The notes beneath the pieces are model-generated. The model made no database searches. It was not told the DNA's origin and saw only the letters and a list, made by a program, of their open reading frames with translations. A stretch of 64,000 bases of DNA, from assembly GCA_001820175.1 (NCBI GenBank), contig MHOT01000012.1:124-64123 (forward strand). The letters run 5' to 3'. Position numbers and translations under genes: made by a program. Source of the DNA: Candidatus Staskawiczbacteria bacterium RIFCSPHIGHO2_02_FULL_42_22 (GTDB lineage Bacteria > Patescibacteriota > Minisyncoccia > Minisyncoccales > Staskawiczbacteraceae). Shown one piece after another: positions 8,343-56,677 of this stretch (position 1 is its first letter; each line of letters opens with the position of its first letter).

Positions 8343-8532
8343 CCGCGGCCCTATGGACATCACATCCAGAAACCGCACTCCAAGTCTTGCCGGATTTGCC
8401 AATCTTGGGCAGTTTTCACAAAAAATTTGTTCGGCGTAGCTACGGCTAGGCCTTACAAATTTTTTGCTCCAAGCCGCCCAATATTGCGAAACCGTCGGCA
8501 ACTTTAGTGCGGTTTCTGGATGTGATGTCCAT
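8343..8532. repeat. family-B MITE-like element (27-bp TIR atggacatcacatccagaaaccgcact), copy 1
   Basis: Perfect terminal inverted repeats. The internal sequence is the reverse complement of copy 32318..32497. Flanked by TA on both sides. Confidence 0.7.
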
Positions 8533-8540
8533 AACAACCC

Positions 8541-8686
8541 TAGATTGCTTCGTCGTCACGCCTGCGGGCGCAACTCCTCGCAATGACGGGGGACACAGAA
8601 TTCGCGTCATTGCGAGGAGCCCGCAGGCGACGAAGCAATCTAACGGTGAACGGAGATTGCTTCGCTGCGGCTCGCAATGACGGATT
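8541..8686. repeat. GC-rich palindromic element (GTCATTGCGAGG...GAAGCAATCT...AGATTGCTTC...CCTCGCAATGAC family), tandem pair
   Basis: Nested inverted repeats read directly: cgtcattgcgaggagcccgcaggcgacgaagcaatctaacggtgaacggagattgcttcgctgcggctcgcaatgacgg. Confidence 0.7.
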
Positions 8687-8773
8687 GATGACGAGCTTAA
8701 AACATTATTCACAGTTCAAGGAAAATATGATGTGTTATAAAATTTCCGAATATGGTAAAATATTCGAATAGTT

Positions 8774-11700
8774 ATGATTAAAAAACCGAAAAAACTAATT
8801 TATTTCTTTGCCGTTTTTTTGATAGGTTTTTTACTGTTAACGGTAAGCTATAGCGCTTTGGCGCTGGAAGTGCAATATCCTCACATTCCGGGATTTTCGG
8901 ATATTAAAAATGGAAGCACCCTACCCGATTATATTAATTATTTCTTTGGCTTTATTATGGTAACGGCCGGAATCATTGCGGTTATTTCCATTGCCATTGG
9001 TGGCCTGCGCATGTTAATTTCTGCCGGTAACCCGGGGGCCCGCGGCGAGGCGATGGACCGGATTTTTGGAGGAGTGCTAGGTATTATTTTATTGATGTTT
9101 TCCTACGTTATTTTAGAGACCATTAATCCCCAGCTGGTGAATTTGCAAGAAACAAGTGTAGTGTCTCTAAACAAAGGAATGTTTTTAGGAGAGCCGAAGG
9201 AGGGACAGGCCATGAATAATAATTCACACTCCATTACGGCTAATTTCGCCCAAAAATTACTAATAAATAACCCCCTTGCGGTTGCAATCGCGAAAGCCGA
9301 TGGAAGTTTCTATAGCCAATTTAATATTGAAGATTATGATATCACCCCATTGCCCGAATCCATAATTAATAGAACTTTCAAGCCGGGGAGTTTTGTTTGG
9401 AATAATTGTCCGGGGTGTGTTGAAGGAGACGGTCCGGGTAAATTTCTGCGGGTGACATACCGTTCTGAGGGCGAAGAGTTTAACGATGACGATACTGCGG
9501 CAAAGCGTGTTCATTTACCAGACATAGAAACTACTGACGAAAATTTTGACGAGGTTAGCTTCTCTCTTTATGGAGTAAAAGACCTTGATTGGGCCGAAAA
9601 AACGCCGGGGATCTATCTTTTTAAGACCGATGATTGCACGGGCCTGCCCACCCGTGTCATTACTAGCAGCGGGCAAATTCCCCCCGGTTTTCAAAACCAG
9701 GTGCGTTCAGCCCAGATTCTTAATGGGAATGAAGAGGGAGACCCCCGCTACGGATTTATTTTAAACACCAGCCCCGATTTAAAGGGCACCTGCAGCCAGC
9801 CGTTTATGAATTATGAGGCCAGCGACCCTGATTACGAGGACGGAGAAGACCATGATTCCGAAGACGAAGCCCCGTGTTTTCCAATTATTAACGACTCACC
9901 TTCGTGCGATTTTACGGTCCCCCAAACCCATAATGTATGCGTTAACCAAACCTGTACCCAAGTAGACGGAGTGGGGGACAATGCCTGCAACACTAGTTCC
10001 GACTGCCTGCCCCAAACCCACAACGAATGCGTCAACCAGGCCTGTCAAGAGATAAGCGGAGCTGGCGATAATAAATGTACCAGCAACAGCGAATGTCTTC
10101 CTACGTGTAATACCGATACACAAAAGTGCGAGGTGGGGGGCGGAGGAAAGAGTTGTAATTCTGATTCAGAATGTACAACTTCTGTTCATAACGAATGCGT
10201 CAACCAGGCCTGCCAAGAGGTAAGTGGAGCTGGCGATAATAAATGTACCAGCAATAGCGAATGTCTTCCTACGTGTAATACCGATACACAAAAGTGCGAG
10301 GTGGGGGGCGGAGGAAAGAGTTGTAATTCTGATTCCGAGTGCACACCGCAACTGGCAGTATTGACCATAAAAAAAGTGGTTGATAATGCGGGGGTTGGGA
10401 ACTCTAATTGCGAAAGTTTTCAGACCTATCGTCTATTTGATTATAATCACTCTGAATGGCTTGGGCTTAACCTATGTCCATCGGGTACGGTGGATATACC
10501 GCTTGAAGCAGGTTATTATGCATTTATGGAAAATGAGCGCAGGCCCCCCTACAAGGCAACTTATGAAGGCGCATGCCCCAGCACCAATATTATCCAAGTA
10601 ACCGAAGGCCAAAATGCCACCTGTACGGTTACTAATACATATAGTTATGGATGCAATAGCCAAAACCAATGTGTTGAAGGGGGCACGGTTAAAGGTTGTG
10701 ATATTGCCAACGGTGATGCCGACTGCACTGCGCCAACTGGCAAATGTAGCACTAACCCTAGCCAGACCTATACTTGTTCTCCGTCAAATAATGGCGCCCC
10801 TTGCACCTCTGCCAATGTATGTAAACCAAGATGCAATAGCCAAAACAAATGCGTTCAGGGGCTTACTGAAGGGCCAGAATGCAGTAATCTTGGCGGTGAC
10901 TGTACTGCATCCATTCTTGTAACAAAAGAATGTGATCCGGTTGGTGATCAAGGGCGCTTTATTATGAGAAAGGACGGTCAGAATATGAATGGCCCAAACA
11001 CTCCGGATATAGGATGTGGCGAAAGCGCAAGCGCCCAAGTAACACCGGGAAGAGATTATATCATAAGCGAAGCTCCTGGAAACAGTACCACTGATCTCTC
11101 TAAATATGATACAGTTATTGGCGGGGAATGCGACCGAAGCGGCCGATTTACTGCGAAGGTAGGTGTTAATAGGTGTACCATCACCAATAACAAGAAACAT
11201 GCGTATTTGCAAATAAAAAAAGAGTGCAGTCCCACAGATGATACTGGTCACTTTGACTTGCGAATTGATGGCATAACGACTTATAGTCAGAATATGGATT
11301 GTGTAAATAATACCACTACTCCACGTAGAGATGTGGGTACTGGAACCCATACCGTCAGTGAACTTGCGGGAAGTAATACCAATCTTTTCGATTACACCAC
11401 TACTATTGATTGCGGTTCGGGGGCGACCAGCGGAACTAGTAAAACTATCACCCTGCAAAAAGATGATGATAAACTCTGCACTATTACCAACACTAAAAAA
11501 CCACCCGGTTCCGCGTCTATAAAAGTAGTAAAACAGTGTAATCCGAGTAGCGACCCAGGTCGTTTTAAAGCAACTATTAATGGCGAAATTGCCAGCAACC
11601 AAGAATTAACATGTACCGGCCCCACGTCATCGGTAACTATTAATGTATCACCCGGAAATTATCTGGTAGGTGAAGTTGCTGGCAGTGGTACCAACCTCTC

Positions 11701-13414
11701 CCAATACAACCCACCGGTGTTTGGTGGGGACTGCACTCAAAGTGGACAAATTATTGCGGAAGTAGGAAAAACGAATTCATGTATTATTACTAATAGCCCC
11801 AAAACTGCTTCATCAGCAACCCTGCGTTTTCATAAGACCGTATTTAATAGCGACAACAATGGTAGTCCCGATTATTCTCCTAATGATTTCGGACCATTTA
11901 CCCTGCAAAATACATCTCGTTCATATACATTTAATGTAGATGCAAGCGGCGATGCCATAATTACTAATATTGTACCCGATACATATTCTATTATTGAAAA
12001 TTATCAAGATTATTATGAGGCAACTTATACCGGAACCGGTGGAGCATGTAACGGCAATAATATCATACCTTTAGGACCAGGAGAAACAAAGGAGTGCATT
12101 ATTTTTAATAGGTGGGAGGGAGGAATATTAGTGTTACATAAAATTATAAAGGATGGTGATTTAAAAAGCGAAGATTTTCTGCCATTTATTTACGATGCAG
12201 ACTTGGATTATGGTCAATTCTATACTTGGGGAGTACCAATACCAGTTTATGCTGGTCATCAGTTGTACGTCTCTGAAATCATACCTGCTAATTCTAATTA
12301 TACCGGCCAATTTGCTCCCCCAAGCGATTGCGATGCAAATGGAGGCATTATTCTTGACGTAGACCAATGGGCGGATTGCAATATTACTAATACCTATCAA
12401 CCTAGCCCATCAGACACAATGTTAACGGTAATAAAAAAAGTAGTGGGAGGACCACTGGATGGGCAATCAAGCCAGTTCCGGATGACCATCGCTGGTTCTG
12501 CTGGCCCTGCCGTACAGGGAGATAATTCTTTTCCTGGCACAGATGACCCCGGCACCCCAAAGATGTTATCTATAACTGGCCCTACCGACTACCGCGTCGA
12601 AGAATCATCGGTCAGCGGTTACACAATGACATATTATAATAATTGCTCAGGTACCATAAACCCGGGGGATCACATCATCTGCAGTATTACTAATACTTAT
12701 CAATTAGGAGCAGGATTAATAAACCCTCAAAACGCTATTTTGGCTAATGTTTCAACCAGTATTATTAATAAAATAAGGCCAGAAATAATTTCTCTTGCCT
12801 CACCCATGCGCATCCGGCTTGCCGCCACGGTTGATGATAGGGGAGGCGTCGGTAGCGACCCTATCGCATTCCCCGCCAGTTATATTTATGTTATTAAGGG
12901 TTACAACCCTGGCAATCCGGAGTTTGATACCCCGGGAACCGGGGTAAGCTTGTATGCCGGCACGCGCTACAAATACCTTCCACCTTCCACTATTAAACAA
13001 CACTTTATTTTAGATGGGACAACTGATTGCGACGACACCTATCAAACCTGCTGGCCCTACACCAACACCGACGATTTATTAAAAGAAATTGGCGATATCC
13101 AGCCGGGTTTTGGTCAAAACCAGGATATCTGCAAGCGAACCTATATTTACCCCTGCACCCAGTACATCGACCACCAGGGAAGCTACCTTACGGTTTTATA
13201 CACCCAAAACCAGGGAAACCCCTACAACCAAACCTGCAGCACTTTCATTAATTCGGTTGACTTTATCAGGGACACCAATAATATTCCCATAGGTAGCACA
13301 CCTATTAACAATCCCTTGCCCACCAATTCTAATATTGATGTAAATAGCGATATTAGTATTTTTGATAATAATAAATACGTCTGCAGAGTGGATATCTTCC
13401 CAATACTGCCGTAG
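8774..13414 (+). CDS. giant surface protein: VirB2/TrbC-like pilin N-terminal module fused to ~1400-aa cysteine-rich and repeat-rich extracellular region (putative T4SS-anchored adhesin)
   Basis: N-terminus has signal/TM, helix YINYFFGFIMVTAGIIAVISIAIGGLRMLISAG, short charged loop NPGARGEAMDRIF and a second helix GGVLGIILLMFSYVIL (VirB2/TrbC-like). These are followed by an acidic linker and four CxNQxCQxxxGAGDNKCTSNSECLP modules. After that come ten or more ~100-aa beta-rich repeats ending in C.ITNT. Confidence 0.5.
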   Translation: MIKKPKKLIYFFAVFLIGFLLLTVSYSALALEVQYPHIPGFSDIKNGSTLPDYINYFFGFIMVTAGIIAVISIAIGGLRMLISAGNPGARGEAMDRIFGGVLGIILLMFSYVILETINPQLVNLQETSVVSLNKGMFLGEPKEGQAMNNNSHSITANFAQKLLINNPLAVAIAKADGSFYSQFNIEDYDITPLPESIINRTFKPGSFVWNNCPGCVEGDGPGKFLRVTYRSEGEEFNDDDTAAKRVHLPDIETTDENFDEVSFSLYGVKDLDWAEKTPGIYLFKTDDCTGLPTRVITSSGQIPPGFQNQVRSAQILNGNEEGDPRYGFILNTSPDLKGTCSQPFMNYEASDPDYEDGEDHDSEDEAPCFPIINDSPSCDFTVPQTHNVCVNQTCTQVDGVGDNACNTSSDCLPQTHNECVNQACQEISGAGDNKCTSNSECLPTCNTDTQKCEVGGGGKSCNSDSECTTSVHNECVNQACQEVSGAGDNKCTSNSECLPTCNTDTQKCEVGGGGKSCNSDSECTPQLAVLTIKKVVDNAGVGNSNCESFQTYRLFDYNHSEWLGLNLCPSGTVDIPLEAGYYAFMENERRPPYKATYEGACPSTNIIQVTEGQNATCTVTNTYSYGCNSQNQCVEGGTVKGCDIANGDADCTAPTGKCSTNPSQTYTCSPSNNGAPCTSANVCKPRCNSQNKCVQGLTEGPECSNLGGDCTASILVTKECDPVGDQGRFIMRKDGQNMNGPNTPDIGCGESASAQVTPGRDYIISEAPGNSTTDLSKYDTVIGGECDRSGRFTAKVGVNRCTITNNKKHAYLQIKKECSPTDDTGHFDLRIDGITTYSQNMDCVNNTTTPRRDVGTGTHTVSELAGSNTNLFDYTTTIDCGSGATSGTSKTITLQKDDDKLCTITNTKKPPGSASIKVVKQCNPSSDPGRFKATINGEIASNQELTCTGPTSSVTINVSPGNYLVGEVAGSGTNLSQYNPPVFGGDCTQSGQIIAEVGKTNSCIITNSPKTASSATLRFHKTVFNSDNNGSPDYSPNDFGPFTLQNTSRSYTFNVDASGDAIITNIVPDTYSIIENYQDYYEATYTGTGGACNGNNIIPLGPGETKECIIFNRWEGGILVLHKIIKDGDLKSEDFLPFIYDADLDYGQFYTWGVPIPVYAGHQLYVSEIIPANSNYTGQFAPPSDCDANGGIILDVDQWADCNITNTYQPSPSDTMLTVIKKVVGGPLDGQSSQFRMTIAGSAGPAVQGDNSFPGTDDPGTPKMLSITGPTDYRVEESSVSGYTMTYYNNCSGTINPGDHIICSITNTYQLGAGLINPQNAILANVSTSIINKIRPEIISLASPMRIRLAATVDDRGGVGSDPIAFPASYIYVIKGYNPGNPEFDTPGTGVSLYAGTRYKYLPPSTIKQHFILDGTTDCDDTYQTCWPYTNTDDLLKEIGDIQPGFGQNQDICKRTYIYPCTQYIDHQGSYLTVLYTQNQGNPYNQTCSTFINSVDFIRDTNNIPIGSTPINNPLPTNSNIDVNSDISIFDNNKYVCRVDIFPILP
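10008..10340 (+). repeat. near-perfect tandem duplication (~150 bp x2) inside the adhesin CDS
   Basis: cacaacgaatgcgtcaaccaggcctgtcaagag...gattcagaatgtaca is repeated with about 7 substitutions. It encodes a duplicated HNECVNQACQE.SGAGDNKCTSNSECLPTCNTDTQKCEVGGGGKSCNSDSEC module. Confidence 0.8.
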
Positions 13415-13416
13415 TA

Positions 13417-13525
13417 TTACCACTCGTCATTGCGAGGGTTCGAAACCCGAAGCAATCTCCACCTCTCGTCATTGCGAGCCACGGCGAAGTAATCTTATAG
13501 CGATCCCTCACGCCTCGTCATTGCG
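13417..13525. repeat. GC-rich palindromic element, interrupted by IS insertion
   Basis: cgtcattgcgagggttcgaaacccgaagcaatctcc...cgtcattgcgg, then the IS. The remainder of the element (tcattgcgaggagtcctgagc...) resumes at 14597. Confidence 0.6.
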
Positions 13526-14596
13526 GGTATAAAGGTAGGTAACTTGTTGCTAATTTTTGAAGTAGATATACCACTTAAAGAAATCCTTTCGCCTGCCCTT
13601 TAACAATCCGCGATGTTGTCGGTAAATAATTTTTAATCTTGAAAAATATCCCTCGATCTTGTTCGTGGTTGAAGGAATATTTTTATCTTTTAAATAATGG
13701 AACATGCTCGGCAGAGCGTTTATCAATAAATTTCTGGTTGCTTTAAGATCGCTGAAAACTTTATCCTTTGAAGACAGGAGGTTCACCGATTTTCCGTATT
13801 TCCTTTCCCATTTTTGAAAAGTATTTAAGAATATTTTTTTACCTCTTTCATTTTTAATTTTTGTAACAGATAGCAATATATCTCTTAATTTCTTGCTGGC
13901 CTCCAGCTTTGGATTTCTTCTTAACCATGATAACCCCTGCCGTTGAATGTGTGCCAAACATCTTTGTATGATAATATCTGGCCAGACATCTTTAATGGCC
14001 CTCATTACGCTTGTATTGCCATCTACCGTGATAGCCATGGGCATAATGCCGCAGCTCTTTGACTCTTCAAAAATTGATCTTGCATATTCGTAATTTTCTC
14101 TGATACAATATTTATGATTTACGATTTTACCATTCGAATTGTCTATTAGCACCATTAGACAATTTTCATGTTTGAAATATGTCCCATCAAAAAGTAAATA
14201 TTTTATTTGATGGTAATTTAGAGTTTTTTTATCCGGCGCTTTGTTCATCCAAAAAGATAATATTTGTTTTATCTTCCAAATTCCACGACGGCTAATACTG
14301 ACTAATTGCCTTGCCGAATAACCCTCAACAATCCACAGCTCAAACCATTTTCTTTCGTTAAATTCCTTGTTCTTGCGATTATGAAAAGTGTAGGTGTGCT
14401 TACAAATTTTACATCTATACCTCTGGTAACCGCATGAAGTGCGACCAAATAATTTAACATTCAAAGAACCACACTTTAGACAACTTTTTTTTCATAATAT
14501 TGAACTGATTTGATATTATTCCAGATTTTAATTGTAATTTACTCTCAAATTAGCACGAAATCCGCATTTTTAGCAACAAGTTACCTACCTTTATAC
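13526..14596 (-). mobile_element. IS1595-family-like insertion sequence with 27-bp perfect TIRs and 8-bp target duplication
   Basis: TIR gtataaaggtaggtaacttgttgctaa at 13527-13553, with its reverse complement at 14570-14596. The direct repeat tcattgcg occurs at 13518-13525 and 14597-14604. There is a single transposase ORF. Confidence 0.7.
13550..14464 (-). CDS. transposase (N-terminal zinc ribbon plus DDE domain; IS1595-like)
   Basis: C..C...C..C near the N-terminus (CGYQRYRCKICKH). DDE-region motifs LFDGTYF, ITVDGNTSVMRAIKDVWPD and TNKIEGYFSRLK. Length 304 aa. Confidence 0.7.
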   Translation of the reverse strand: MNVKLFGRTSCGYQRYRCKICKHTYTFHNRKNKEFNERKWFELWIVEGYSARQLVSISRRGIWKIKQILSFWMNKAPDKKTLNYHQIKYLLFDGTYFKHENCLMVLIDNSNGKIVNHKYCIRENYEYARSIFEESKSCGIMPMAITVDGNTSVMRAIKDVWPDIIIQRCLAHIQRQGLSWLRRNPKLEASKKLRDILLSVTKIKNERGKKIFLNTFQKWERKYGKSVNLLSSKDKVFSDLKATRNLLINALPSMFHYLKDKNIPSTTNKIEGYFSRLKIIYRQHRGLLKGRRKDFFKWYIYFKN

Positions 14597-14690
14597 TCAT
14601 TGCGAGGAGTCCTGAGCCGCAGCGAAGGACGACGAAGCAATCTAACATTGAACGGAGATTGCTTCACTGCGGCTCGCAATGACGGCGTAA
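14597..14690. repeat. GC-rich palindromic element (right part of IS-disrupted copy plus hairpin)
   Basis: tcattgcgaggagtcctgagccgcagcgaaggacgacgaagcaatctaacattgaacggagattgcttcactgcggctcgcaatgacgg. Confidence 0.65.
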
Positions 14691-14692
14691 CT

Positions 14693-14729
14693 GTAAACAA
14701 AAACGACCCTTGGGATCGTTTTTGTTTAC
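14693..14729. terminator. hairpin downstream of jag
   Basis: gtaaacaaaaacgacccttgggatcgtttttgtttac stem-loop. Confidence 0.4.
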
Positions 14730-14744
14730 AGAATTGTAAAAAAA

Positions 14745-15245: not shown

Positions 15246-15253
15246 AATTAATA

Positions 15254-15410
15254 GACCTGTTGCGTATTAAGGATTTACTGCAAATTGCATATTTCGGCCA
15301 TAAATTTGCTATAATTTTTCGGCGGGCCCTCTAGGCAAGCCGAAAAATTCTATCAAATTTCTGGCTCAAAATCTTCAATTTTCGTAACAATCCTTAATAC
15401 GCAACAGGTC
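15254..15410. repeat. family-C MITE-like element (conserved core ttttcggcgggccctctaggcaagccgaaaaattctatcaaattt, self-complementary termini), copy 1
   Basis: Termini are gacctgttgcgtattaaggatt and aatccttaatacgcaacaggtc. TA on both flanks. Confidence 0.65.
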
Positions 15411-15451
15411 TAATTCTTTAAATGTAACCTCTTGCGCCTCTCCCATATATA

Positions 15452-15550
15452 CTCGTCGTCATTGCGAGCGAGCGGCCGCAGCCGCGAGCGCGGCAATCTC
15501 CTTTTTTTTACGGGGATTGCTTCGGGCCTGCGGGTCCTCGCAATGACGAG
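15452..15550. repeat. GC-rich palindromic element overlapping the 3' end of yidC
   Basis: cgtcgtcattgcgagcgagcggccgcagccgcgagcgcggcaatctcc...ggggattgcttcgggcctgcgggtcctcgcaatgacgag. The yidC stop codon (15508) lies inside the element. Confidence 0.65.
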
Positions 15551-16287
15551 ATAGGGGGAATTACTTTTATATTTTTTGATCTTTTGAGAATAAACCATTG
15601 CTGCGCCATGGAAAATAATCCGCTTACAATCCAATATAGTCCCAGCGCCGATGGTAATTTTATAAGAATAATCACGGTAATAATAGGAAAAAGATATACC
15701 ATTTGTTTTTGCATCATGGATGCAATATCAGGGCCACTTTTTGCCACCCCCTTAATTGTCTTGGGAAGCAGCATTTTTGTTTGAAAAAATTGTACGGCTC
15801 CCGCCAACACTGCAAATATCATATTAGGGTCGCCTAGGTTAATAAGCCCCAGAAACATTGTGTTAATCTGCACGGGGTTTACCACAAATTGATATAAATG
15901 AGAAAGCTCTTCTGGTTTTAATCCATTCCAAAATACCCGATACAGGGCGATAAGAATAGGGAGTTGTATCAAGGCCAAAAAAAGGCCTGAAAACGGGTTT
16001 ATCTTTTCCCTGCGGTATAATTCCAGGGTCTCTTTGGCTTGCTTTTCCTTATCGTCTTTATATTTTTTTTGCAGTTCCCGCAACTGCGGCTGCAATTTTT
16101 GCATAGCCGCCTGAGAGGCAACGGCTTTCACTGAAAGCGGATAGATAATAATCCGAATAATCACTGTAAGAATAATAATAGCGATGCCAAAATCGTGGCC
16201 AGGCACATAATTATAAATAATCACCAGGAAATTAAAGAGGGGAAAGTATAAAAAAAAATCGAAAAAATTTACAATAAATTGGAACAT
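15508..16287 (-). CDS. yidC: membrane protein insertase YidC (short form); last ~18 codons encoded by a GC-rich repeat
   Basis: Multi-TM Oxa1/YidC pattern with conserved loop PQLRELQKKYKDDKEKQAKETLELYRREKINPFSG. The C-terminus ...SLRGPAGPKQSP is read from the repeat. Confidence 0.8.
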   Translation of the reverse strand: MFQFIVNFFDFFLYFPLFNFLVIIYNYVPGHDFGIAIIILTVIIRIIIYPLSVKAVASQAAMQKLQPQLRELQKKYKDDKEKQAKETLELYRREKINPFSGLFLALIQLPILIALYRVFWNGLKPEELSHLYQFVVNPVQINTMFLGLINLGDPNMIFAVLAGAVQFFQTKMLLPKTIKGVAKSGPDIASMMQKQMVYLFPIITVIILIKLPSALGLYWIVSGLFSMAQQWFILKRSKNIKVIPPISSLRGPAGPKQSP

Positions 16288-16440
16288 TATTACTTAATTT
16301 CTAATTATTCTAATTATTCTAATTAACCTAATCAAATATCAATAACTAAAATACTTAAATCCTAAAACGGTTTAGAGATTAGGTATTCACTTATTGGATA
16401 TTGATTAGAATAATTAGGTTAATTAGAAATTAGAATAATT
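16288..16440. repeat. AT-rich inverted-repeat spacer (empty cassette-like) between yidC and rnpA
   Basis: ttctaattattctaattattctaattaacctaatcaaat is mirrored by attgattagaataattaggttaattagaaattagaataatt. Same sequence style as the arms of cassette 1. Confidence 0.55.
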
Positions 16441-18655: not shown

Positions 18656-18689
18656 GCAACCCCTCACGCCCCACATAACCCCTCACGCC

Positions 18690-18975
18690 CCCACCGTCAT
18701 TGCGAGGCACACTGAAGCAATCCCCGTACAAAACGACGAGATTGCCACGTCGCTTGCGAGCTCCTTGCAATGAAGACACTGGGTCACTGATCCTATTTTA
18801 CACTTTTTGATTAGGGGGTGTGAGGGGTTACCGCCTCACCACCATCACTACCGTCATTGCGAGGAATCCGCAGATTCCGTGGCAATCCCTCAATAATACG
18901 ACTAGATTGTCCCGATGGTGGAGCCATCGAGGATCCTCGATAGAATCGGGACTGCGGGCCCTCGTAATAACAGTA
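18690..18975. repeat. cluster of GC-rich palindromic elements (3 units)
   Basis: ccgtcattgcgaggcacactgaagcaatcc..., cgtcattgcgaggaatccgcagattccgtggcaatcc... and attgtcccgatggtggagccatcgaggatcctcgat...atcgggact. Confidence 0.65.
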
Positions 18976-19235
18976 CGGGGGATGATGTGGTTAAAATTAA
19001 AATAAGATAGTGGAATACCTGTGTAAAAGTACGGTAGTAAACTGAACACCATTGATGTATAAAAAATACTATAAAAATTCACCCACCTTATCACCAAATG
19101 ATTTCCAATTATTTATCAACAAGTTATTATAAAAAAAGATAAAGATAAATTACCCTATAAAATTATTAAAAATACATTAAAATTACCTTCACCAACAACA
19201 ATAATAATATTTTATTAACTATTAATTACGACATT
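18976..19235. promoter_or_regulatory. AT-rich dnaA-dnaN intergenic region with DnaA-box-like 9-mers (oriC/DUE candidate)
   Basis: TTATCACCA and TTATCAACA at ~19087-19120, followed by ~120 bp of >85% AT immediately upstream of dnaN. Confidence 0.4.
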
Positions 19236-20469: not shown

Positions 20470-20617
20470 ACATACACCCACCGTCATTGCGAGGAGCGCG
20501 CACGCGACGCGGCAATCTCCACCACCAAACGACGACGGAGATTGCCATGGCTGGCCAGACGCGAGGCGTAATTTGTCGCAACAAATTCGCCCCGTCTCCG
20601 GCCTCGCAATGACGGGA
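20470..20617. repeat. GC-rich palindromic elements (2 units)
   Basis: ccaccgtcattgcgaggagcgcgcacgcgacgcggcaatctcc...ggagattgcc...gcctcgcaatgacggg. Confidence 0.65.
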
Positions 20618-20645
20618 AAAATATTATTTCGTAATTCAAAGTAAC

Positions 20646-22924: not shown

Positions 22925-23215
22925 CAAGCAATCTGTGGGTAACCTCTCACACCCCCAATGTCATTCCCGACGCGCACGATCGGGAATCCAGGGTATCTTG
23001 TTTAGACCTCTTGCAAAATAAGGATTAGCTGAAAATTCCATATTTTGGCTGAAAATTTGCAATAATTTTTCGGCGGGCCTATGGGCAAGCCGAAAAATTC
23101 TATCAAATTTTCATCTAAAAATCTGTAATTTTCGCTCTAATCCTTATTTTACAAGAGGTCTTTTGAAAATCTTCTGGATCTCGCTTCAAAAGCCCGGGAT
23201 GACAACGAGAGGCGT
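22925..23215. repeat. GC-rich element split by a nested family-C element
   Basis: gtcattcccgacgcgcacgatcgggaatccaggg | family-C copy (gacctcttgcaaaataaggatt...aatccttattttacaagaggtc) | aaaatcttctggatctcgcttcaaaagcccgggatgacaacgagaggcg. An uninterrupted version is at 38574..38665. Confidence 0.7.
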
Positions 23216-27869: not shown

Positions 27870-27994
27870 ATATATTGCAAGGTGATATAATTAAGATATT
27901 GTGTGATTTTCATCAAATTGCGCACCTTAATCGTACTATAAACTACCAACATATCAAAGAGACGAAAAATAATCCCTTGCACTTTACCACCATC

Positions 27995-28306
27995 ACTACC
28001 GTCATTGCGAGGAGTCCCGATCGCAATCGTGGACGACGAAGCAATCTCGTCATTTTGTATGGAGATTAGACCTGTCCCTAAATAAGGTTTCGTACGAAAA
28101 TAACAGATTTTGAGCTAGAAATTTGATAGAATTTTTCGGCTTGCCCTCTGGGCCCGCCGAAAAATTATAGCAAATTTGTGGCCAAAAGGTGTTATTTGCA
28201 GTAAAACCTTATTTAGGGACAGGTCTATTACTTCGTCGTTGTGACTCCTCGCAATGACGGGGTGGCCAGATTGCTTCGGGCCTGCTGGCCCTTGCAATGA
28301 CAAAGT
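27995..28306. repeat. GC-rich element with a nested family-C element (copy 3, TA-flanked)
   Basis: ccgtcattgcgaggagtcccgatcgcaatcgtggacgacgaagcaatctcgtcattttgtatggagat-TA-[gacctgtccctaaataaggttt...aaaccttatttagggacaggtc]-TA-ttacttcgtcgttgtgactcctcgcaatgacgg. Confidence 0.65.
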
Positions 28307-28450
28307 GTGAGGGGTTACGACAAAAACAGCTCTGGAGTTGGAGGTCTTATATGGGCATGTCTTAGATTGGATAGTTTTGCTCCGGCTCAACTATTCCCTA
28401 AACACGCTTTTACTGGTATCCCAGATACCATGACCCCTCCAACTCCAGAG
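28300..28450. repeat. long hairpin (20-bp stem, ~100-nt loop)
   Basis: acagctctggagttggaggtc ... gacccctccaactccagagctgt. Confidence 0.45.
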
Positions 28451-31609: not shown

Positions 31610-32254
31610 GTGGAAAAAATAATTACTAAAACCTTTCGTCAAACCCAGGAAGTCGGCCAAAATTTCGCGGATGAAATTCTATCTTCTGATTCTCAAAAAA
31701 CGGCGGTGATTTTGGCGTTGAGGGGTGATTTGGGTGCCGGAAAAACCACGTTTTTGCAGGGCTTTGCAAAAGGCCTGGGAATTATTGAAGTGGTGAATAG
31801 TCCGACGTTTGTTATTATGAAGAAATTCAAAATCGCTGAATTGCGCGGAAATTTACCCTTCGGCCTCGCTCAGGGCGGGCGCGGAAGGGACGCGGAAACG
31901 AAACCGCGCGGCGGCCCCGCGGGGCCGCCCGCCCGCCCGTCATTGCGAGCCGTGCCCAGTGGGGCGCGGCGTGGTCCCGATGAATTTATCAAGATAAATT
32001 CATACGAGGATCCTCGATGGCAAAGCCATCGGGACAATCCAGCGTTTAAATTTTTCTACCACTTCGATTTATATCGCCTCGAAAGCGAAAAGGACTTGGA
32101 GTTTTTGAATTTCCAAGAAATAATTTCAAACCCAAAAAACATCATTGCCATCGAATGGCCGGAAAAAATCGGCAAATTATTGCCTAAAAATAGCATTTCA
32201 ATAATATTCAAACATTTAGAAGAAAATAAAAGAGAGTTGATAATTCATAGATAA
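31610..32254 (+). CDS. tsaE: tRNA threonylcarbamoyladenosine biosynthesis protein TsaE, carrying an in-frame repeat-element insertion
   Basis: Walker A ILALRGDLGAGKTTF; SPTFVIMKKF ... HFDLYRL motifs. About 55 extra codons lie between them (GLAQGGRGRDAETKPRGGPAGPPARPS...). Confidence 0.75.
   Translation: MEKIITKTFRQTQEVGQNFADEILSSDSQKTAVILALRGDLGAGKTTFLQGFAKGLGIIEVVNSPTFVIMKKFKIAELRGNLPFGLAQGGRGRDAETKPRGGPAGPPARPSLRAVPSGARRGPDEFIKINSYEDPRWQSHRDNPAFKFFYHFDLYRLESEKDLEFLNFQEIISNPKNIIAIEWPEKIGKLLPKNSISIIFKHLEENKRELIIHR
31855..32042. repeat. GC-rich palindromic element inserted in frame within tsaE
   Basis: gcccgcccgtcattgcgagccgtgcccagtggggcgcgg ... ggtcccgatg...gaggatcctcgatggcaaagccatcgggacaatcc. 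Same sub-motifs as copies at 18895 and 38755. Confidence 0.65.
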
Positions 32255-32317: not shown

Positions 32318-32497
32318 ATGGACATCACATCCAGAAACCGCACTTAAGTTGCCGACGGTTTGGCAATCTTGGGCGGCTTGGAGCAAAAAATTTGTGAGGC
32401 CTAGCCGTAGCTACGCCGAACAAATTTTTTGTGAAAACTGCCCAAGATTGGCAAACCCGTCAAGACTTGGAGTGCGGTTTCTGGATGTGATGTCCAT
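32318..32497. repeat. family-B MITE-like element, copy 2 (opposite internal orientation to copy 1)
   Basis: atggacatcacatccagaaaccgcact...agtgcggtttctggatgtgatgtccat; TA flanks. Confidence 0.7.
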
Positions 32498-32698
32498 ATG
32501 TATGACAAGGGTATGGGAAATTTTTTAGGAAATGCAAGAATGCAGAAAGGAGATTCCGTAGAAGATGTGAGAGTAAGATCTGGTTATTCTAGTAGGATAA
32601 CCATAAGTGGGATTGAAGCAGGAAAATATGGAATTTCCGCAAAAAATATAAAAAGAATTGTTGCTGCGTACCGACTAACGCCCGCTGAATTGCAGTAA
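32498..32698 (+). CDS. small XRE-type helix-turn-helix protein (tentative)
   Basis: ITISGIEAGKYGISAKNIKRIVAAYRLTPAEL resembles an HTH_XRE helix-turn-helix. The start codon lies at the edge of the family-B repeat. Confidence 0.3.
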   Translation: MYDKGMGNFLGNARMQKGDSVEDVRVRSGYSSRITISGIEAGKYGISAKNIKRIVAAYRLTPAELQ

Positions 32699-34844: not shown

Positions 34845-34865
34845 TTTAGTGTAAAATGAATTCAA

Positions 34866-34954
34866 TGCGATGCTAATATACTAATTCATGCTAATAATAC
34901 CAATGCGAAAACGTAATTCGTATCATTAGTATGCATTCGCATATTGGCATCGCA
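34866..34954. repeat. family-D hairpin element, copy 1
   Basis: gcgatgctaatatactaattcatgctaat...attagtatgcattcgcatattggcatcgc; second copy at 61170..61275. Confidence 0.6.
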
Positions 34955-38346: not shown

Positions 38347-38424
38347 AATTTTTTAAGTTAATTAAAACTCTATCAGATAATCTCGATTTTTGCAACTTTT
38401 TGGTAATTGAGCTTGGTGAATAAT

Positions 38425-38860
38425 ACCCACTACCGTCATTGCGAGGAGCCCCGAACCACAGTGAGGGGCGACGAAGCAATCTAATAACGAATGGAGATTG
38501 CTTCGCTGTGGCTCGCAATGACGAGAGAAAAACCATTATTCGCCAAGCTCTAATTAAAACCCCTCACACCCCCGATGTCATTTACGACGCGCACGATCGG
38601 GAATCCAGGGGAAAATCTTCTGGATCCCGGGTCAAAAGTCCGGGATGACAACGAGAGGCGTGAGGGGCTATTTTTGGTAATTTTGAGTATGGCAAATAAT
38701 CCCCTCAATCAGTCATTGCGAGCCCACAGGCGTGGCAATCTCGCTTCATTGAATCTAACTGGATTGTCCCGATGGTGGAACCATCGAGGATCCTCGATCA
38801 CATCGGGACTTCGGGTTTGCGAACCCTCGCAATGACGATGCGCGTGGGGGATGCCTCGGT
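38425..38860. repeat. cluster of GC-rich palindromic elements (4 units, including an intact copy of the unit split at 22925)
   Basis: ccgtcattgcgaggagccccgaaccacagtgaggggcgacgaagcaatct...; gatgtcatttacgacgcgcacgatcgggaatccagggg...cccgggatgacaacgagaggcg; cagtcattgcgagcccacaggcgtggcaatctc...attgtcccgatggtggaaccatcgaggatcctcgat. Confidence 0.7.
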
Positions 38861-39946: not shown

Positions 39947-40226
39947 CGTCATTACGAGGGGATTGTAATACCTGAAGCAATCTCGCATAATTACATAAAA
40001 CGAGATTGCCGCTCGCTTTGCGAGCAAAGCTCCTCGCAATGACGATGGGGGGGGTGTGAATGGTCACCCCTCAAAGTAACTGCTCACTGAACATGAAAAA
40101 TAAGCCCACTTACCTCTCGTCGTCATTGCGAGGAGCCCCGAGCCGAATCGAGGGGCGACGTGGCAATCTGGTCGTTTTGTACGGGGATTGCTTCGGGCCT
40201 GCGGGCCCTCGCAATGACGAGAGGCG
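39947..40226. repeat. GC-rich palindromic elements (2 units)
   Basis: cgtcattacgaggggattgtaatacctgaagcaatctcgc... and cgtcgtcattgcgaggagccccgagccgaatcgaggggcgacgtggcaatct...ggggattgcttcgggcctgcgggccctcgcaatgacgag. Confidence 0.7.
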
Positions 40227-40301
40227 CGAGGGGTTAGTCAAATGCTTGACATTATTTTATAAAATGTTATAATGGGATAATTAAGTTAATTATAAAATTT
40301 T

Positions 40302-48284: not shown

Positions 48285-48475
48285 GGTTCCTTAAAAGAGG
48301 CAAAGTATCTGATATATTTTAGTTGTCGCCAAGGATATATAACCAAAGAAGATGAAAAAAAGTTATTAGTTTTATCCGAAAGAATTGGAAAAATGTTATG
48401 GGGAATTATTGTAAAAATATAAAATTAGTGCGTTAAGTTTAAGCGTTCTGCGCTACGCGCTCCACGTTCTGCAAA

Positions 48476-49042: not shown

Positions 49043-49046
49043 GAGT

Positions 49047-49105
49047 ATGGACATCACATCCAGAAACCGCACTAAGTTGCCGACGGTTTGGAAACTTTAG
49101 TGCAA
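49047..49105. repeat. family-B element remnant (left TIR plus ~30 nt)
   Basis: atggacatcacatccagaaaccgcactaagttgccgacggtttgg, then diverges. Confidence 0.5.
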
Positions 49106-49149
49106 AGCGATAATATTTGTTCTATACAATAAGGGCTTGGTAATGATAT

Positions 49150-49240
49150 CCCCTCCGTGTCATACCCGCGAAAGCGGGGATCCAGACTCTCAAACAAAAA
49201 CGCTAGATTCCCGCTTTCGCGGGAATGACAATGGGGCGGT
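49150..49240. repeat. GC-rich palindromic element, variant subfamily (gtcat.cccgcgaaagcggg)
   Basis: cgtgtcatacccgcgaaagcggggatccagactctcaaacaaaaacgctagattcccgctttcgcgggaatgacaatgg; a near-identical copy is at 57395..57480. Confidence 0.65.
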
Positions 49241-49296
49241 GTTGGGTGTTATTTGCCAATCTCAGGTAACCAGTACCTTTACAAGGAGTAATTGCT

Positions 49297-49797: not shown

Positions 49798-49867
49798 GTC
49801 AGATTATAAAAGCGGTAACCGCAAAAACCGCTTTTTTTTATTGTCATCGTGTGCTACATTAAAAACC

Positions 49868-51184: not shown

Positions 51185-51232
51185 CCCCTCCTCGCCTCGT
51201 CATTGACGGCGGGGTGCGAGGAGTTACAGCGT
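51185..51232. repeat. short GC-rich palindromic element
   Basis: cccctcctcgcctcgtcattgacggcggggtgcgaggagttac. Confidence 0.5.
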
Positions 51233-51306
51233 GCAGGGTATTGACAAAGTATTTTTAATATTGTATCATTAAAAAACAGTAAATAGTATTAATTTTCTAC
51301 CATTAT

Positions 51307-53010: not shown

Positions 53011-53017
53011 AAAATCG

Positions 53018-53320
53018 ATGGCCCAAAATTATGACTTGCGAGAAGCCATTATTGAAGGTGTTGGCTTGGCGGAGCTGTCACCGGCCAAGCAAGATACTGT
53101 AGTGGCTGAGGTTATCGAGGGGATATCGGCAAATATAAATGAGGCGGTATGGGAAAAATTATCACGTGAAGATAAAAATGATTTGAATAAAATAGCGTCG
53201 CAAGGCCCGGAGGATACTCTGGATTACCTGAATTCTCATATCGAAAATTTCTCGTCCCTAGTCGAGGATGTTACCCGTAAAACCATTGCCGAATTTAAAC
53301 AAAAAAAGGCCGGCATTTGA
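53018..53320 (+). CDS. hypothetical protein
   Basis: ORF with start trimmed to MAQNYD to remove overlap. Confidence 0.3.
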   Translation: MAQNYDLREAIIEGVGLAELSPAKQDTVVAEVIEGISANINEAVWEKLSREDKNDLNKIASQGPEDTLDYLNSHIENFSSLVEDVTRKTIAEFKQKKAGI

Positions 53321-53414
53321 TTTTTTCAGGGTTTTGCGCTACACTGTACGCAATGGTTTGAAGAAGCCATTTTTTGTTACTAAATTGTATTTTGTTACGA
53401 AATTATAACATGCC

Positions 53415-53666
53415 ATGGAAAATCAATTAACTAAATCGGTAAAAAAATTCATCAGGTCCGAAAAGGCGCGCATCCGCAGTCAATTTTTAGATGTGAAAAA
53501 ACAAGACGAATTGATTGGAAATTTGTATAAAAAATTATTGGATAAACCAGTGGTTAAAAAGGCCGATGAGGCGCCTTTGGAAAATCCGGAAAAAACGGTG
53601 GCGGTAGAACAAGAAACCAAAAAAGCGCCGAAAGAGGCGGCGGTTAAAAAATCTAAACCAAAATAA
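53415..53666 (+). CDS. hypothetical small lysine-rich protein
   Basis: 83-aa ORF. Confidence 0.3.
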   Translation: MENQLTKSVKKFIRSEKARIRSQFLDVKKQDELIGNLYKKLLDKPVVKKADEAPLENPEKTVAVEQETKKAPKEAAVKKSKPK

Positions 53667-53837
53667 TTACATGAAGCAAAGCACTACCCGTCACAACGGA
53701 AGAATTAACAAAAGATGGAGAAAAAGTAGGAAACCCAAGCGATCCTAATTTACGAATACATCCGAATTATCCGAATAACGTTAACCCTATTAGGATCATT
53801 CGGATGAAGATTCGGATTATTCGGATCGCGTACTAAT

Positions 53838-54782
53838 ATGACCATAAAAGATATTCACAATTTATCTATTAACATGGGTATGGAATCGGACTTTCGAGGC
53901 AAGGAAGGAGTCCAAAAGCTTTTGGATGGCAAAAAAAGCAAATTTTTGACCCTTTCTTTAAAGGAGCAGGATGAGTTTGATAGGGAAGCGTTTCAAAACC
54001 CTTACCTGGATTCCGGCGTCTATAATGTTTCTGATGACAAGGAAATTAAAAGGGTGCTCGTAGGAATTGATATTGGTCCTGAAGAAATTTTATTGGCCCG
54101 CGAGCTTGGCAACATTGATTTGGTCATTGCGCACCACCCCGTAGGCAAGGGCTTGGCCCAGTTGGCGGATGTGATGGATTTACAGTGCGATGTGTATAAT
54201 TATTATGGAGTACCAATAAATGTGGCGGAGGGGCTGATGAGAGAAAGAATTTCGGAAGTTGCCAGGGGGGTCAATGCCATTAATCACCAAAGAACCGTGG
54301 ACACCGCCCGACTTTTGGGGGTTAACCTGATGAATTCCCACACGCCCACGGATAACTTGGCGGCACATTTTTTGAAAAATATTTTCGAGAATAAAAAATG
54401 TGAAAAAGTGCAGGATGTGGTAAGTACCCTAAAAGAAATTCCTGAATACAAAGAAGCAATGAAAATTGGTGTGGGTCCTAAAATTTTTGTGGGCTCTCCC
54501 GAACATCGCTGTGGAAAAATTGCTCTGTCGGAAATTACCGGAGGCACTGAGGGCTCGCCGAAGTTGTACGAAAAAATCGCCCAGGCCGGAATTGGTACGG
54601 TAATCGGCATGCACATTTCTGAGGATCACAAAAAAGAGGCCGAAGCCGCCCATATTAATATTGTCATTGCCGGACATATGTCATCGGATTCATTGGGGGT
54701 CAACTTATTTATGGATGAATTAGAAAAACAGGGAATTGAAGTAGTGGCTTGTTCGGGGTTTACGAGGATCTCAAGGATATAA
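53838..54782 (+). CDS. NIF3-family dinuclear-metal-centre protein (tentative)
   Basis: LVIAHHP and C-terminal IAGHMSSD resemble the conserved His clusters of NIF3/YqfO. Confidence 0.4.
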   Translation: MTIKDIHNLSINMGMESDFRGKEGVQKLLDGKKSKFLTLSLKEQDEFDREAFQNPYLDSGVYNVSDDKEIKRVLVGIDIGPEEILLARELGNIDLVIAHHPVGKGLAQLADVMDLQCDVYNYYGVPINVAEGLMRERISEVARGVNAINHQRTVDTARLLGVNLMNSHTPTDNLAAHFLKNIFENKKCEKVQDVVSTLKEIPEYKEAMKIGVGPKIFVGSPEHRCGKIALSEITGGTEGSPKLYEKIAQAGIGTVIGMHISEDHKKEAEAAHINIVIAGHMSSDSLGVNLFMDELEKQGIEVVACSGFTRISRI

Positions 54783-54786
54783 CATC

Positions 54787-54818
54787 AAAAGCCGCCGCGC
54801 TAAAGCGCGGCGGCTTTT
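54787..54818 (+). terminator. rho-independent terminator
   Basis: aaaagccgccgcgctaaagcgcggcggctttt. Confidence 0.6.
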
Positions 54819-55077
54819 GATTTACTAAAAGTTATCCACAGCCAGATGCTTGACATGGTTTTTTGAGGTGATATGATGGCGGTAGATGAACCTTTTAGAA
54901 GATTATCACAATCTTCAAAAAAGGGATATCAATTCGCTCCGCTCATTCAAAATACAACCCCCAAACAAACCCAAAAAAACACCACAACCCCTCAAACATA
55001 TCAACAGGGCTTTCTTCGGAAAGTCTTTTTGCGTATATGGGGCCAGTGTTTGGATCTTGGTGAATAATAATTTTTCC

Positions 55078-55158
55078 CTCGTCATTGCGAGCCGCAGCGA
55101 AGCAATCTCCGTTCATCGCTAGATTGCTTCGTCGCCTGCGGGCTCCTCGCAATGACGG
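55078..55158. repeat. GC-rich palindromic element
   Basis: cctcgtcattgcgagccgcagcgaagcaatctccgttcatcgctagattgcttcgtcgcctgcgggctcctcgcaatgacgg. Confidence 0.7.
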
Positions 55159-55226
55159 TTTTGGGACATTGTTCACAAAGCTTGTTTGATAAATACTGCA
55201 TATTTTGTTACGATGAAAACAAAAAC

Positions 55227-55568
55227 ATGGCAAAAGCAAAGAAGGCAATAAAAAAGAAAAATACGAAAGTGGTAAAGAATAAGTCCCTTGCCAAGAATCC
55301 GTTGAAGCCGACAAGAAAAGAAGGAAAATTAGTAGGAAAAGTTTCTCACTATTTTTCAAATATCAAAGTAGCGGTTATTAGGGTTTTGGCTCCGATAAAG
55401 CAGGGGGATGAAATAAGGATTATAGGGGGAGAGGCCACGGATTTTAATCAAAAAATCACCTCAATGCAAATTGACCACAAGGAAGTTGTAAAGGCCGCTA
55501 AGGGGAAATCGATTGGATTAAAAGTGAGCGAAAAAGTACGCGAAGGATATAAGATATACAAAGCATAA
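55227..55568 (+). CDS. hypothetical basic protein
   Basis: ORF beginning MAKAKKAIKKK with a beta-rich C-terminal part; no assignable family. Confidence 0.3.
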   Translation: MAKAKKAIKKKNTKVVKNKSLAKNPLKPTRKEGKLVGKVSHYFSNIKVAVIRVLAPIKQGDEIRIIGGEATDFNQKITSMQIDHKEVVKAAKGKSIGLKVSEKVREGYKIYKA

Positions 55569-55777
55569 ATTATAACATGAGATTGTCGAGCATGATTGAC
55601 ATTCAAAAATAAATAAAATAGGATAACTAAATTCAAAATACAAAATTATAAGCTCCAAACAAATTATAATAACCAAAATATAAAATTCAAAACGTTTTAG
55701 ATTTAGTTATTTGGATTTTGATATTGTTTGGGATTTGGTGCTTGGAATTTATAATTTCTTTTAACAAATTAAAAGTT

Positions 55778-56254
55778 ATGGACGAAAAAACTTTTTTTAT
55801 CACGAAAGCAAAATTGCAAGAATTAAAACAGGAGCACGAAAAGCTGGTTTTGGCCGAGCGCGACAAAACAGTTGGCCAGGAGGCGCCTAGAATTCTTGAA
55901 TCAGAGGATTTAAATCCCGAGTTCGTCAGTTTCCAGGAAGACATAGGGGCATTGCGTGGCAGGATTGACGAACTGGAAAATATTTTTGAAAATTATCAAT
56001 TAATAAAAAAACCACCAAAAGAAAGACAGGTAATGGTTGATTTGGGGGCAAAGGTGGGGGTGGATATCAACGGCCAACACGACGAATTTATGATTATGGG
56101 GACTTTGGAGGCCGATCCGGTGCTGGGTCGCATTAGTAATGAATCACCGGTTGGTAGGGCACTGGTGGGGCGCAAGGTGGGAGACGAAGTTGATGTTTTT
56201 CTCCCCGAGAAAACAACCTATAAAATAAAGCATATCAGTTACGAAATCAGTTAA
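55778..56254 (+). CDS. greA: transcription elongation factor GreA
   Basis: N-terminal coiled coil ...TKAKLQELKQEHEKLV... and C-terminal FKBP-like GRISNESPVGRALVGRKVGDEVDV. Confidence 0.8.
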   Translation: MDEKTFFITKAKLQELKQEHEKLVLAERDKTVGQEAPRILESEDLNPEFVSFQEDIGALRGRIDELENIFENYQLIKKPPKERQVMVDLGAKVGVDINGQHDEFMIMGTLEADPVLGRISNESPVGRALVGRKVGDEVDVFLPEKTTYKIKHISYEIS

Positions 56255-56284
56255 CAATGTGAGAGAGGCCCGTAACTGCTCACT

Positions 56285-56465
56285 GGGTATGCAGCGTAAT
56301 CCTAATCTCCGTTCGTCATTGCGAGGCCGGAGACGGGGCGAATTTGTTGCGACAAATTACGCCTCGCGTCTGGCCAGCCGTGGCAATCCCCGTCGTCGTT
56401 TGGTGGTGGAGATTGCCGCGTCGTCCTTCGCCCTGGCTCAGGACTCCTCGCAATGACGGGAGGTG
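56285..56465. repeat. GC-rich palindromic elements (2 units)
   Basis: ccgttcgtcattgcgaggccggagacggggcgaatttgttgcgacaaattacgcctcgcgtctggcc...gtggcaatcc...ggagattgccgcgtcgtcc...cctcgcaatgacggg. Confidence 0.65.
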
Positions 56466-56497
56466 TAACATGTCCAGTGAGCAGTTACAGAGGCCTT

Positions 56498-56677
56498 ATG
56501 GACATCACATCCAGAAACCGCACTAAAGTCGCCGGCGGTTTGGCAATCTTGGGCGGCTTGGAACAAAAAATATGCGAGGCGTAGCCGAAGCTACGGCGAA
56601 CATATTTTTTGTGAAAACTGCCCAAGATTGCCAAATCCGGCAAGACTTGGAGTGCGGTTTCTGGATGTGATGTCCAT
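56498..56677. repeat. family-B MITE-like element, copy 4
   Basis: Perfect 27-bp TIRs, TA flanks; the flanking host sequence aggcctt/aagggcct is itself palindromic. Confidence 0.7.

Follow-up and report, generated by a model that had tools for sequence, protein, structure and literature searches.

A probable IS630-dependent miniature element with a well-kept hairpin in a Candidatus Staskawiczbacteria genome

Introduction

What are the short repeats with matching inverted ends that lie at four places in a 64,000-nt stretch of the Candidatus Staskawiczbacteria bacterium RIFCSPHIGHO2_02_FULL_42_22 genome, and what put them there? The stretch (contig MHOT01000012.1, positions 124 to 64,123), referred to as the window, comes from a Parcubacteria genome bin of the candidate phyla radiation (CPR) recovered from the Rifle aquifer; the PolX protein encoded in the window shows 100% identity to one recorded for this bacterium. 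A sequence-only reading had described the repeat as "family B", a non-autonomous derivative of an insertion sequence (IS) of IS630/Tc1-mariner type, i.e., a miniature inverted-repeat transposable element (MITE). The present analysis leads to much the same answer. Family B is very probably a 178-bp non-coding MITE with a duplicated TA, mobilised in trans by the IS630-family transposase of a Patescibacteria IS. A number of observations support this: i) the ends resemble the left end of such an IS; ii) the copies have TA flanks; iii) empty sites carry a single TA; iv) there are many independent insertions, in both directions, in several genomes; v) one insertion is nested in another repeat; and vi) the element has no coding capacity. 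Every testable sequence-level feature of an IS630-dependent MITE was found except a transposase in the same genome, which was absent from the region examined.

Copies of the element in the window

The 27-mer ATGGACATCACATCCAGAAACCGCACT has seven exact matches in the window (8353+, 8506-, 32318+, 32471-, 49047+, 56498+, 56651-), four on the plus and three on the minus strand, and none in dinucleotide-preserving shuffles. These matches define three full copies of the MITE, all with perfect 27-nt terminal inverted repeats (TIRs), and one remnant. The family is therefore real, but two details of its first description were wrong: copy 1 starts at 8353 rather than 8343, and every full copy is exactly 180 nt long rather than 180-190 bp. 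A search of the window with a profile built from 24 copies found no copies beyond the known four. The copies and their parts are as follows.

Copy 1: 8353..8532, minus strand, 180 nt, inverted relative to copy 2; flanked by T (8352) and A (8533)
Copy 2: 32318..32497, plus strand, 180 nt, reference orientation
Copy 3: 56498..56677, plus strand, 180 nt, between greA (end 56254) and an MFS gene (start 56731)
Remnant: 49047..49103, plus strand, 4 nt past the ruvA stop
Left TIR, ATGGACATCACATCCAGAAACCGCACT: 32318..32344, plus strand, identical at 8353-8379, 49047-49073 and 56498-56524; presumed site of transposase binding and cleavage
Right TIR: 32471..32497, minus strand, exact reverse complement of the left TIR, identical at 8506-8532 and 56651-56677
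Core: 32345..32470, plus strand, 126 nt, an imperfect palindrome centred on CGTAGCTACG

The family is present in both orientations, with copy 1 inverted relative to the others as first described: copies 1 and 2 are reverse complements with 97% identity, and the identity between copies 2 and 3 is 93%. The remnant consists of the left TIR (27 nt) and the adjoining 18 nt followed, after an internal deletion, by 12 nt of the inner right arm. It lacks the right TIR and therefore cannot be mobile. All four loci are intergenic. No protein-family signal was found over the element, and the only ORFs (open reading frames) over copy 1 are antisense frames of 88-94 aa that extend into the flanks. Each copy folds into one long imperfect hairpin, with an energy of -120 kcal/mol under RNA parameters (z = -16) and -72 kcal/mol under DNA parameters (z = -14.6).

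The flanks of the copies read c-T-ATGGACAT...ATGTCCAT-A-a. The claim that every copy has TA on both sides stands if the outermost A or T of the 27-nt repeat is counted, but the string given in its support, cTA-atggacat...atgtccat-TAa, does not occur in the sequence. Each flanking TA is made of one flanking base and the outermost base of the repeat. Hence, if the TA is the target duplication, the element proper is 178 bp long with 26-bp TIRs.

Copy 1 lies 28 nt past an ORF at 7722-8324 (200 aa) and 241 nt ahead of another at 8774-13414. Copy 2 lies 63 nt past tsaE (31610-32254), and a small helix-turn-helix (HTH) gene call begins directly after it at 32498. Both here and at L001:6654 (L numbers denote fetched loci), the end of the element abuts an ATG used as the start by gene callers or by the orthologue (...ATGTCCAT|ATG...). 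The start codon thus takes its A from the flanking TA, and the insertion has moved the native upstream region 180 nt away.

Filled and empty target sites

The sequence-only reading had proposed three checks: a search of related genomes with the TIR, a search for an IS630 transposase with matching termini, and a comparison with empty sites in relatives. All three were carried out and all agree with its view of the element, one irregular target site (taken up below) apart. Because no strain-level empty site of the window copies was seen among the contigs of the source population, the evidence on empty sites was taken from other family members and other species. It consists of three filled/empty comparisons within the fetched data (L024, L025/L018 and L001/L064) and a cross-species check of copy 3.

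The copy in L024 is nested in another repeat of ~100 nt, and its joined flanks match three intact copies of that repeat without a gap. The intact copies (window 34864-34954, L030 and L062) read ...GCATAC-TA-ATGATAC.... A sister MITE, which derives from the same IS, occupies a site in L025 whose empty counterpart in L018 reads GGT-TA-TGG. In both comparisons the empty site, the element and one extra TA together make up the filled site, so that a single TA becomes TA-element-TA; the extra TA is the IS630/Tc1-mariner signature. The ~100-nt repeat that supplies the paralogous empty site for L024 is AT-rich (TGCGATGCCAATATGCGAATGCATACTAATGATAC...) and is located at window 34864-34954 and 61175-61275, L030:3724-3823 and L062:8974-9084.

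The gene order greA-MFS-polX is conserved in three related species that have no element at the site of copy 3. Removal of the element from the window sequence leaves CAGAGGCCT-TA-AGGGCCTTTTTTG, a small terminator-like hairpin that aligns with CAGAGCTTAGAGCGCTTTTTTG (TTAG loop) in L093. Copy 3 thus landed in the loop TA of this hairpin, which it interrupts as GAGGCCT-TA-AGGGCCTTTTTT.

These sites also bear on whether the repeat is mobile DNA at all. It might instead be a repeated cis-regulatory or small-RNA gene, such as a terminator, an attenuator or an mRNA-stabilising hairpin, spread by duplication or recombination. The very stable fold would suit such a role, as would the intergenic position of all copies, most of them just downstream of a gene. 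Moreover, copy 3 sits within a terminator-like hairpin followed by a T-run, so that a read-through structure would still end in a T-run. However, the element has no T-run of its own, occurs in both orientations relative to genes, and has ends nearly identical to that of an IS630-family IS. One copy is nested in another repeat, and the difference between filled and empty sites is exactly 180 bp, at a TA. A regulatory gene spread in this way is therefore a very improbable explanation.

A candidate IS630-family partner

JGI metagenomes were scanned with an exact 20-mer of the element end. The scan gave 64 stretches, from which duplicate assemblies of any one locus were then removed. It also returned sequences that start with ATAGACATCACATCCAGAAACCGCA and continue with ~45 nt and a TATAAT box, then an ORF. 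Complete ISs of 1103-1138 bp were found in L014, L038, L042, L033 and L086, each with a single ORF of 347-352 aa that contains the Pfam domains DDE_3, HTH_33, HTH_29 and HTH_32 and scores 177-195 bits (cutoff 100) on the NCBIfam model NF033545, "IS630 family transposase". Each ORF has its stop codon within the right end of the IS, and all five ISs are flanked by T...A. The window TIR agrees with the IS left end (IRL) at 23-26 of 27 positions and with the right end (IRR) at 15-20, while the two ends of the IS itself agree at 16-20.

At E<=1e-30 the homologues of the transposase number more than 1186, among them entries named "IS630 family transposase [Patescibacteria group bacterium]" and "[Candidatus Parcubacteria bacterium]". 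Most are on contigs of ~1.1-1.3 kb, which are the IS assembled on its own. A sequence search of PDB with the transposase gave no match. Another MITE family, 131-155 nt long and abundant in one metagenome, retains both the left and the right IS ends; a 459-bp copy that carries a fused 132-aa ORF represents an intermediate stage of deletion. On a Patescibacteria contig (L086:5001-6480 and L087), a Y1_Tnp gene of IS200/IS605 type, convergent with an IS630-family IS copy, directly adjoins that copy and overlaps it slightly.

In the mechanism proposed here, both ends of the element would have been copied from the left inverted repeat of an IS that belongs to the IS630/Tc1-mariner family and lives in Patescibacteria; the DDE transposase of this IS would supply the activity in trans. 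The transposase would bind the ~26-bp ends through its N-terminal HTH domains, excise the element and paste it into a TA dinucleotide; repair would then duplicate the TA. Mobilisation in trans and the cut-and-paste chemistry are both suggested by analogy with ISY100 (PMC2170065).

Could a different enzyme, perhaps an HUH/Y1 transposase (IS200/IS605 or REP-RAYT type), have moved the element as a single-stranded hairpin, the likeness to IS630 ends being secondary? The whole element is a hairpin whose ends covary as a stem, and, as noted, a Y1_Tnp gene adjoins one IS630 copy in L086. IS200/IS605 and REP elements are known to have neither terminal inverted repeats nor target duplication, unlike the present element with its 26-27-bp TIRs and TA flanks. 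The IRL match is too close for a chance likeness, and a search of the window, though not exhaustive, turned up no Y1 gene. Transfer by such an enzyme is hardly credible, and an IS630-family transposase remains the preferred agent.

Copies in related genomes

Exact matches to the ruvA and 5'-3' exonuclease proteins in assemblies from ENA, JGI and Logan led to many contigs from the population of the source organism; the other contigs of the organism that were fetched duplicate window ~27,960-59,046. The identity of these population contigs to the window is 99.95-100%, and in all of them copies 2 and 3 and the remnant hold unchanged positions. As expected for a repeat, several contigs terminate inside the element. 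The element thus breaks metagenome assemblies of its own source organism.

Among species-representative genomes, a scan with a 22-mer of the element end starting GGACATC found two copies in a different Staskawiczbacteria bin; the IS has AGACATC at this place, and the scan was blind to the IS in isolate genomes or metagenome-assembled genomes. In all, the 180-nt element occupies 26 distinct insertion sites, in both orientations, in Candidatus Staskawiczbacteria/Parcubacteria contigs. Two of the 26 are 225-nt variants, and 25 have a 5' T and a 3' A. The mean identity among the related copies is 94%. All are intergenic, and most follow closely on a gene. Where the flanking genes are co-directional, 11 copies lie relative to them in the orientation of copy 2 and seven in the opposite one, hence no orientation preference. 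No match to the element or its end was found in phage or plasmid collections (blastn, distant mode) or among IMG/VR contigs, and a viral or plasmid origin, of which these searches gave no sign, was set aside.

In the 225-nt variants, CTTGGAG is followed by an inserted hairpin of 45 nt, AGACGCGAGGCGTAATTTGTCGCAACAAATTCGCCCCGTCTCC. This module is also present, reverse-complemented, within a family-A repeat (described below) upstream of copy 3 (window ~56326-56370). The loci outside the window on which this observation rests are L044:8035-8079, L052, L010:2639-2863(-) and L049:4939-5164(-). The module resembles an insertion unit in its own right, smaller still than the MITE.

Observations that weigh against trans-mobilisation

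Several results do not favour the IS630-dependent reading. The transposases found no homologue by tblastn (E<=1e-3) in the window, as the sequence-only reading had stated, or in the fetched organism contigs that duplicate part of it. An exact-match scan of the metagenomes holding copies with the window's own end type (B1) found no IS with a window-type left end, and the IS copies came from other samples than the B1 copies. None of the ISs found begins with TGGACA; all start with TAGACA or TACACA. None of them is thus the exact cognate IS of the window element; an IS beginning TGGACATCAC would be that partner. The core is unrelated to the IS interior, so the element is not a simple internal-deletion derivative. 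No insertion polymorphism of the window copies was seen among the population contigs examined, in which all sites are filled. In L001, the copy has CA on its left and TA on its right, and the 72%-identical orthologue L064 has CA; this is either a post-insertion change or an irregular insertion such as ISY100 also makes. Finally, the two arms of the element covary above the level of shuffles, which a plain "junk" transposon model alone does not predict.

The copies in the window genome are probably old and no longer moving, and the family is probably a fossil in this genome. This is indicated by the 93-97% identity of the copies to one another, the filled sites in every population contig examined, the truncated remnant, and the lack of a cognate transposase alongside.

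The hairpin core and its end types

The interior of the element is an imperfect palindrome, as had been described. The 126-nt core has asymmetric loops, CTTGGAG / GAAA, and A6/T6 tracts, with A-tracts on either side of its centre. An origin of the two halves by tandem duplication was rejected: their direct alignment scores -5, no better than shuffled sequence (-7±3.8). In a core-only search of the fetched loci, the core was found elsewhere with at least five other end types, listed here, which brings the symmetric TIR types to at least six in all.

B2: ATGGAACAAACATTATGAAACCGCACT
B3: ...ACATTACAAAACCGGCACT
B4: ATAGAACAAACATTATCACTTTGCACT
B5: ACGGAATAAAC...
B6: ATAGACATCACATCCGATACCTGGACT

The two ends of any one core-bearing element always match each other. 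The ends of the window family are of the IS left-end type, those of B4 are nearer the right end (19-21 of 27 positions, vs 13-15 for the left), and those of B2 are slightly nearer the right end. Among core-bearing elements, none was seen with one left-type and one right-type end. The IS functions with ends that are ~60-70% alike; therefore, the transposase does not need symmetry as perfect as that of the MITE ends. In L010:1793-2085, a B1 copy took as its exact target the TA at the end of a B3-type copy (...GTTCCA-TA-TGGACATC...), and the two MITEs thus stand head to tail with one TA in common.

The arms also change together, ends included, and the element thereby stays a near-perfect hairpin of 180 nt. 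Within B1, seven of 74 predicted pairs carry pair-keeping changes on both sides, compared with 2.6±0.7 in shuffles, and none of 500 shuffles reaches seven; one of the double-change pairs is inside the terminal repeat (L030). Across subfamilies, compensatory changes affect 33 of 72 pairs. In the interior the count is 18 of 45, against 7.8±1.7 in shuffles, with 97% of cells paired. The loop CTTGGAG / GAAA is invariant and the apical CCGWAG invariant or nearly so, while the adjacent stems vary.

These features raise the possibility that the core is a functional structured module riding on MITE ends, either as RNA or as a DNA site, single-stranded or bent, that the transposase or some host factor would recognise. 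Selection on that structure or its loops, and not a mutational mechanism, would then keep the arms complementary. The identical core with at least six symmetric TIR types, the compensatory changes, the constant loop and apical motifs between changing stems, and the A-tracts around the centre all speak for it. So does an excess of G.T over A.C mismatch positions, 17 vs 5 across subfamilies, but this falls to 11 vs 7 within B1 and is inflated by a structure prediction that permitted G-U pairs. On the other side, unpaired columns are on average no better conserved than paired ones (0.825 vs 0.893), and among recent single mutations, those that break a pair are about as frequent as those that preserve one. 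Long hairpin transcripts are common to bacterial MITEs generally (PMC2229807). A functional core of this kind is thus unlikely. We likewise see only a small chance that the core is a conserved structured module carried by at least six always-symmetric IS630-type end pairs, with the whole element, transposase-binding ends included, evolving as one hairpin.

An RNA role was considered separately, since the sequence-only reading had held that a conserved structured RNA with covariation would count against mobility. The covariation expected generically of a structured RNA is present, but maintenance of a palindrome at the DNA level would look the same. The strand preference expected generically of such an RNA is absent: orientation relative to transcription is 11 vs 7, and no promoter-like or terminator-like site was found within the element. 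Searches of Rfam with the window gave only tmRNA above the gathering thresholds and, over the element, nothing credible even at E<=1. The evidence on the element as an RNA is thus against or at best neutral, and the covariation leaves the evidence for mobility untouched.

Returning to the IS630-dependent MITE, its palindrome is most probably kept by arm-to-arm templated correction of a quasi-palindrome and/or by selection among elements for a foldable or bendable structure. Template switching at quasi-palindromes is well known in bacteria. The co-evolution of the arms is not attributed here to a host RNA function. If selection, and not templated correction, keeps the hairpin, then either MITEs are the vehicle of a new structured RNA that spreads among CPR genomes, or IS630-type elements of very short length depend on a foldable or bent core to draw their two ends together. 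The symmetric ends and covarying arms are a clean natural data set on how quasi-palindromic mobile DNA keeps its symmetry, and this strict symmetry with covariation is the one feature that deserves follow-up.

Other repeats and features in the window

CPR bacteria have very small genomes that are usually called streamlined. This 64-kb CPR window nevertheless holds several families of small palindromic repeats, and one of them is now tied to a transposase family that is widespread in Patescibacteria (>1000 homologues). A full-text literature search found no paper on MITEs in CPR bacteria.

Among the other features are very abundant small GC-rich palindromic units built on CGTCATTGCGAGG...CGAAGCAATCT / AGATTGCTTCG...CCTCGCAATGACG. 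Often paired or nested, they fill many intergenic regions, lack IS630-type ends, and correspond to repeat families D2, D5-D7, D10, D15 and D16. They are probably the "family A" of the first description. Other repeats include possibly a second MITE family. The coordinates are as follows.

GC-rich palindromic units: 8540-8690, 14595-14684, 15504-15561, 18681-18985, 20480-20628, 27986-28315, 38420-38553, 39947-40232, 55050-55171, 56310-56472
Repeats of ~170 nt with inverted ends TAGACCTGTTGCG...CGCAACAGGTCTA, both orientations (D4, D17, I3, I5, I8), the possible second MITE family: 15246-15414, 23003-23161, 28065-28233
Repeat of 91 nt, 92% identical, with hairpins GTCATTCCCGCGAAAGCGGGAATCC: 49142-49232, 57390-57480
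Tandem duplication of 159 nt (95% identical, period 168): 10019-10345, inside the 1546-aa ORF 8774-13414
tmRNA gene, tag peptide ANLFNKQPALAYA: 61868-62217, minus strand, the sole Rfam match in the window

An end of the ~170-nt repeat is also found beside a MITE copy in L002. Units like the 91-nt repeat occur inside other MITE-like elements with the IS left end (L021, L034). The N-terminus of the product of ORF 8774-13414 weakly matches a model of pilin-like conjugal transfer protein.

Comparison with known systems

Family B is an ordinary kind of element, an IS630-dependent MITE, in an unusual ultra-small CPR host and with an oddly well-kept hairpin symmetry. In plants, Stowaway MITEs and Tc1/mariner elements (Osmar) show TA duplication, likeness to the autonomous element in the terminal repeats only, an unrelated interior, and strong hairpin potential. 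On this established knowledge, the window element is like them in all four traits. Stowaway, however, is eukaryotic and has no sequence relationship to it.

The partner IS itself is a typical relative of ISY100 and the IS630 family in its length of ~1.1 kb, its one transposase with N-terminal HTH and DDE_3 domains, its imperfect inverted repeats and its TA flanks (PMC2170065). In vitro, 34 of 39 ISY100 insertions were into TA with TA duplication (PMC2170065). The window element, in contrast, has no transposase and has only the ~27-nt end in common with the IS.

The Correia (NEMIS) elements of Neisseria have no known transposase, whereas a candidate partner transposase was identified for the window element. 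The Correia elements are otherwise similar, with lengths of 107-155 bp, 24-26-bp TIRs, terminal TA, TA duplication and long-hairpin transcripts (PMC2229807). An IHF site and promoter elements are part of the Correia sequence, but signals of this kind were not detected in the window element. ERIC and other enterobacterial imperfect palindromes resemble it in being intergenic, 100-200 bp long, and in keeping the hairpin as copies diverge (PMC2229807 for structure). They differ in having TIRs of ~7 bp, no identified transposase, and no sequence relationship to the window element. ERIC, too, shows compensatory changes.

The closest described system is RUP/IS630-Spn1. Mobilisation of RUP of Streptococcus pneumoniae by IS630-Spn1 was proposed from the similarity of the TIRs and from the TA targets (PMC2229807). 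RUP is 107 bp long with ~9 contiguous paired TIR bases, while the window element is 180 bp with perfect 27-nt ends. The window element also differs in that both its ends are of the IS left-end type, its core is common to several families with different ends, its host belongs to the CPR/Patescibacteria, and its cognate IS was not found in the same genome within the region examined. What the two systems share is the overall design: a short, non-coding, intergenic repeat with TIRs that resemble those of an IS630-family IS, inserted at TA, for which mobilisation in trans has been proposed (PMC2229807).

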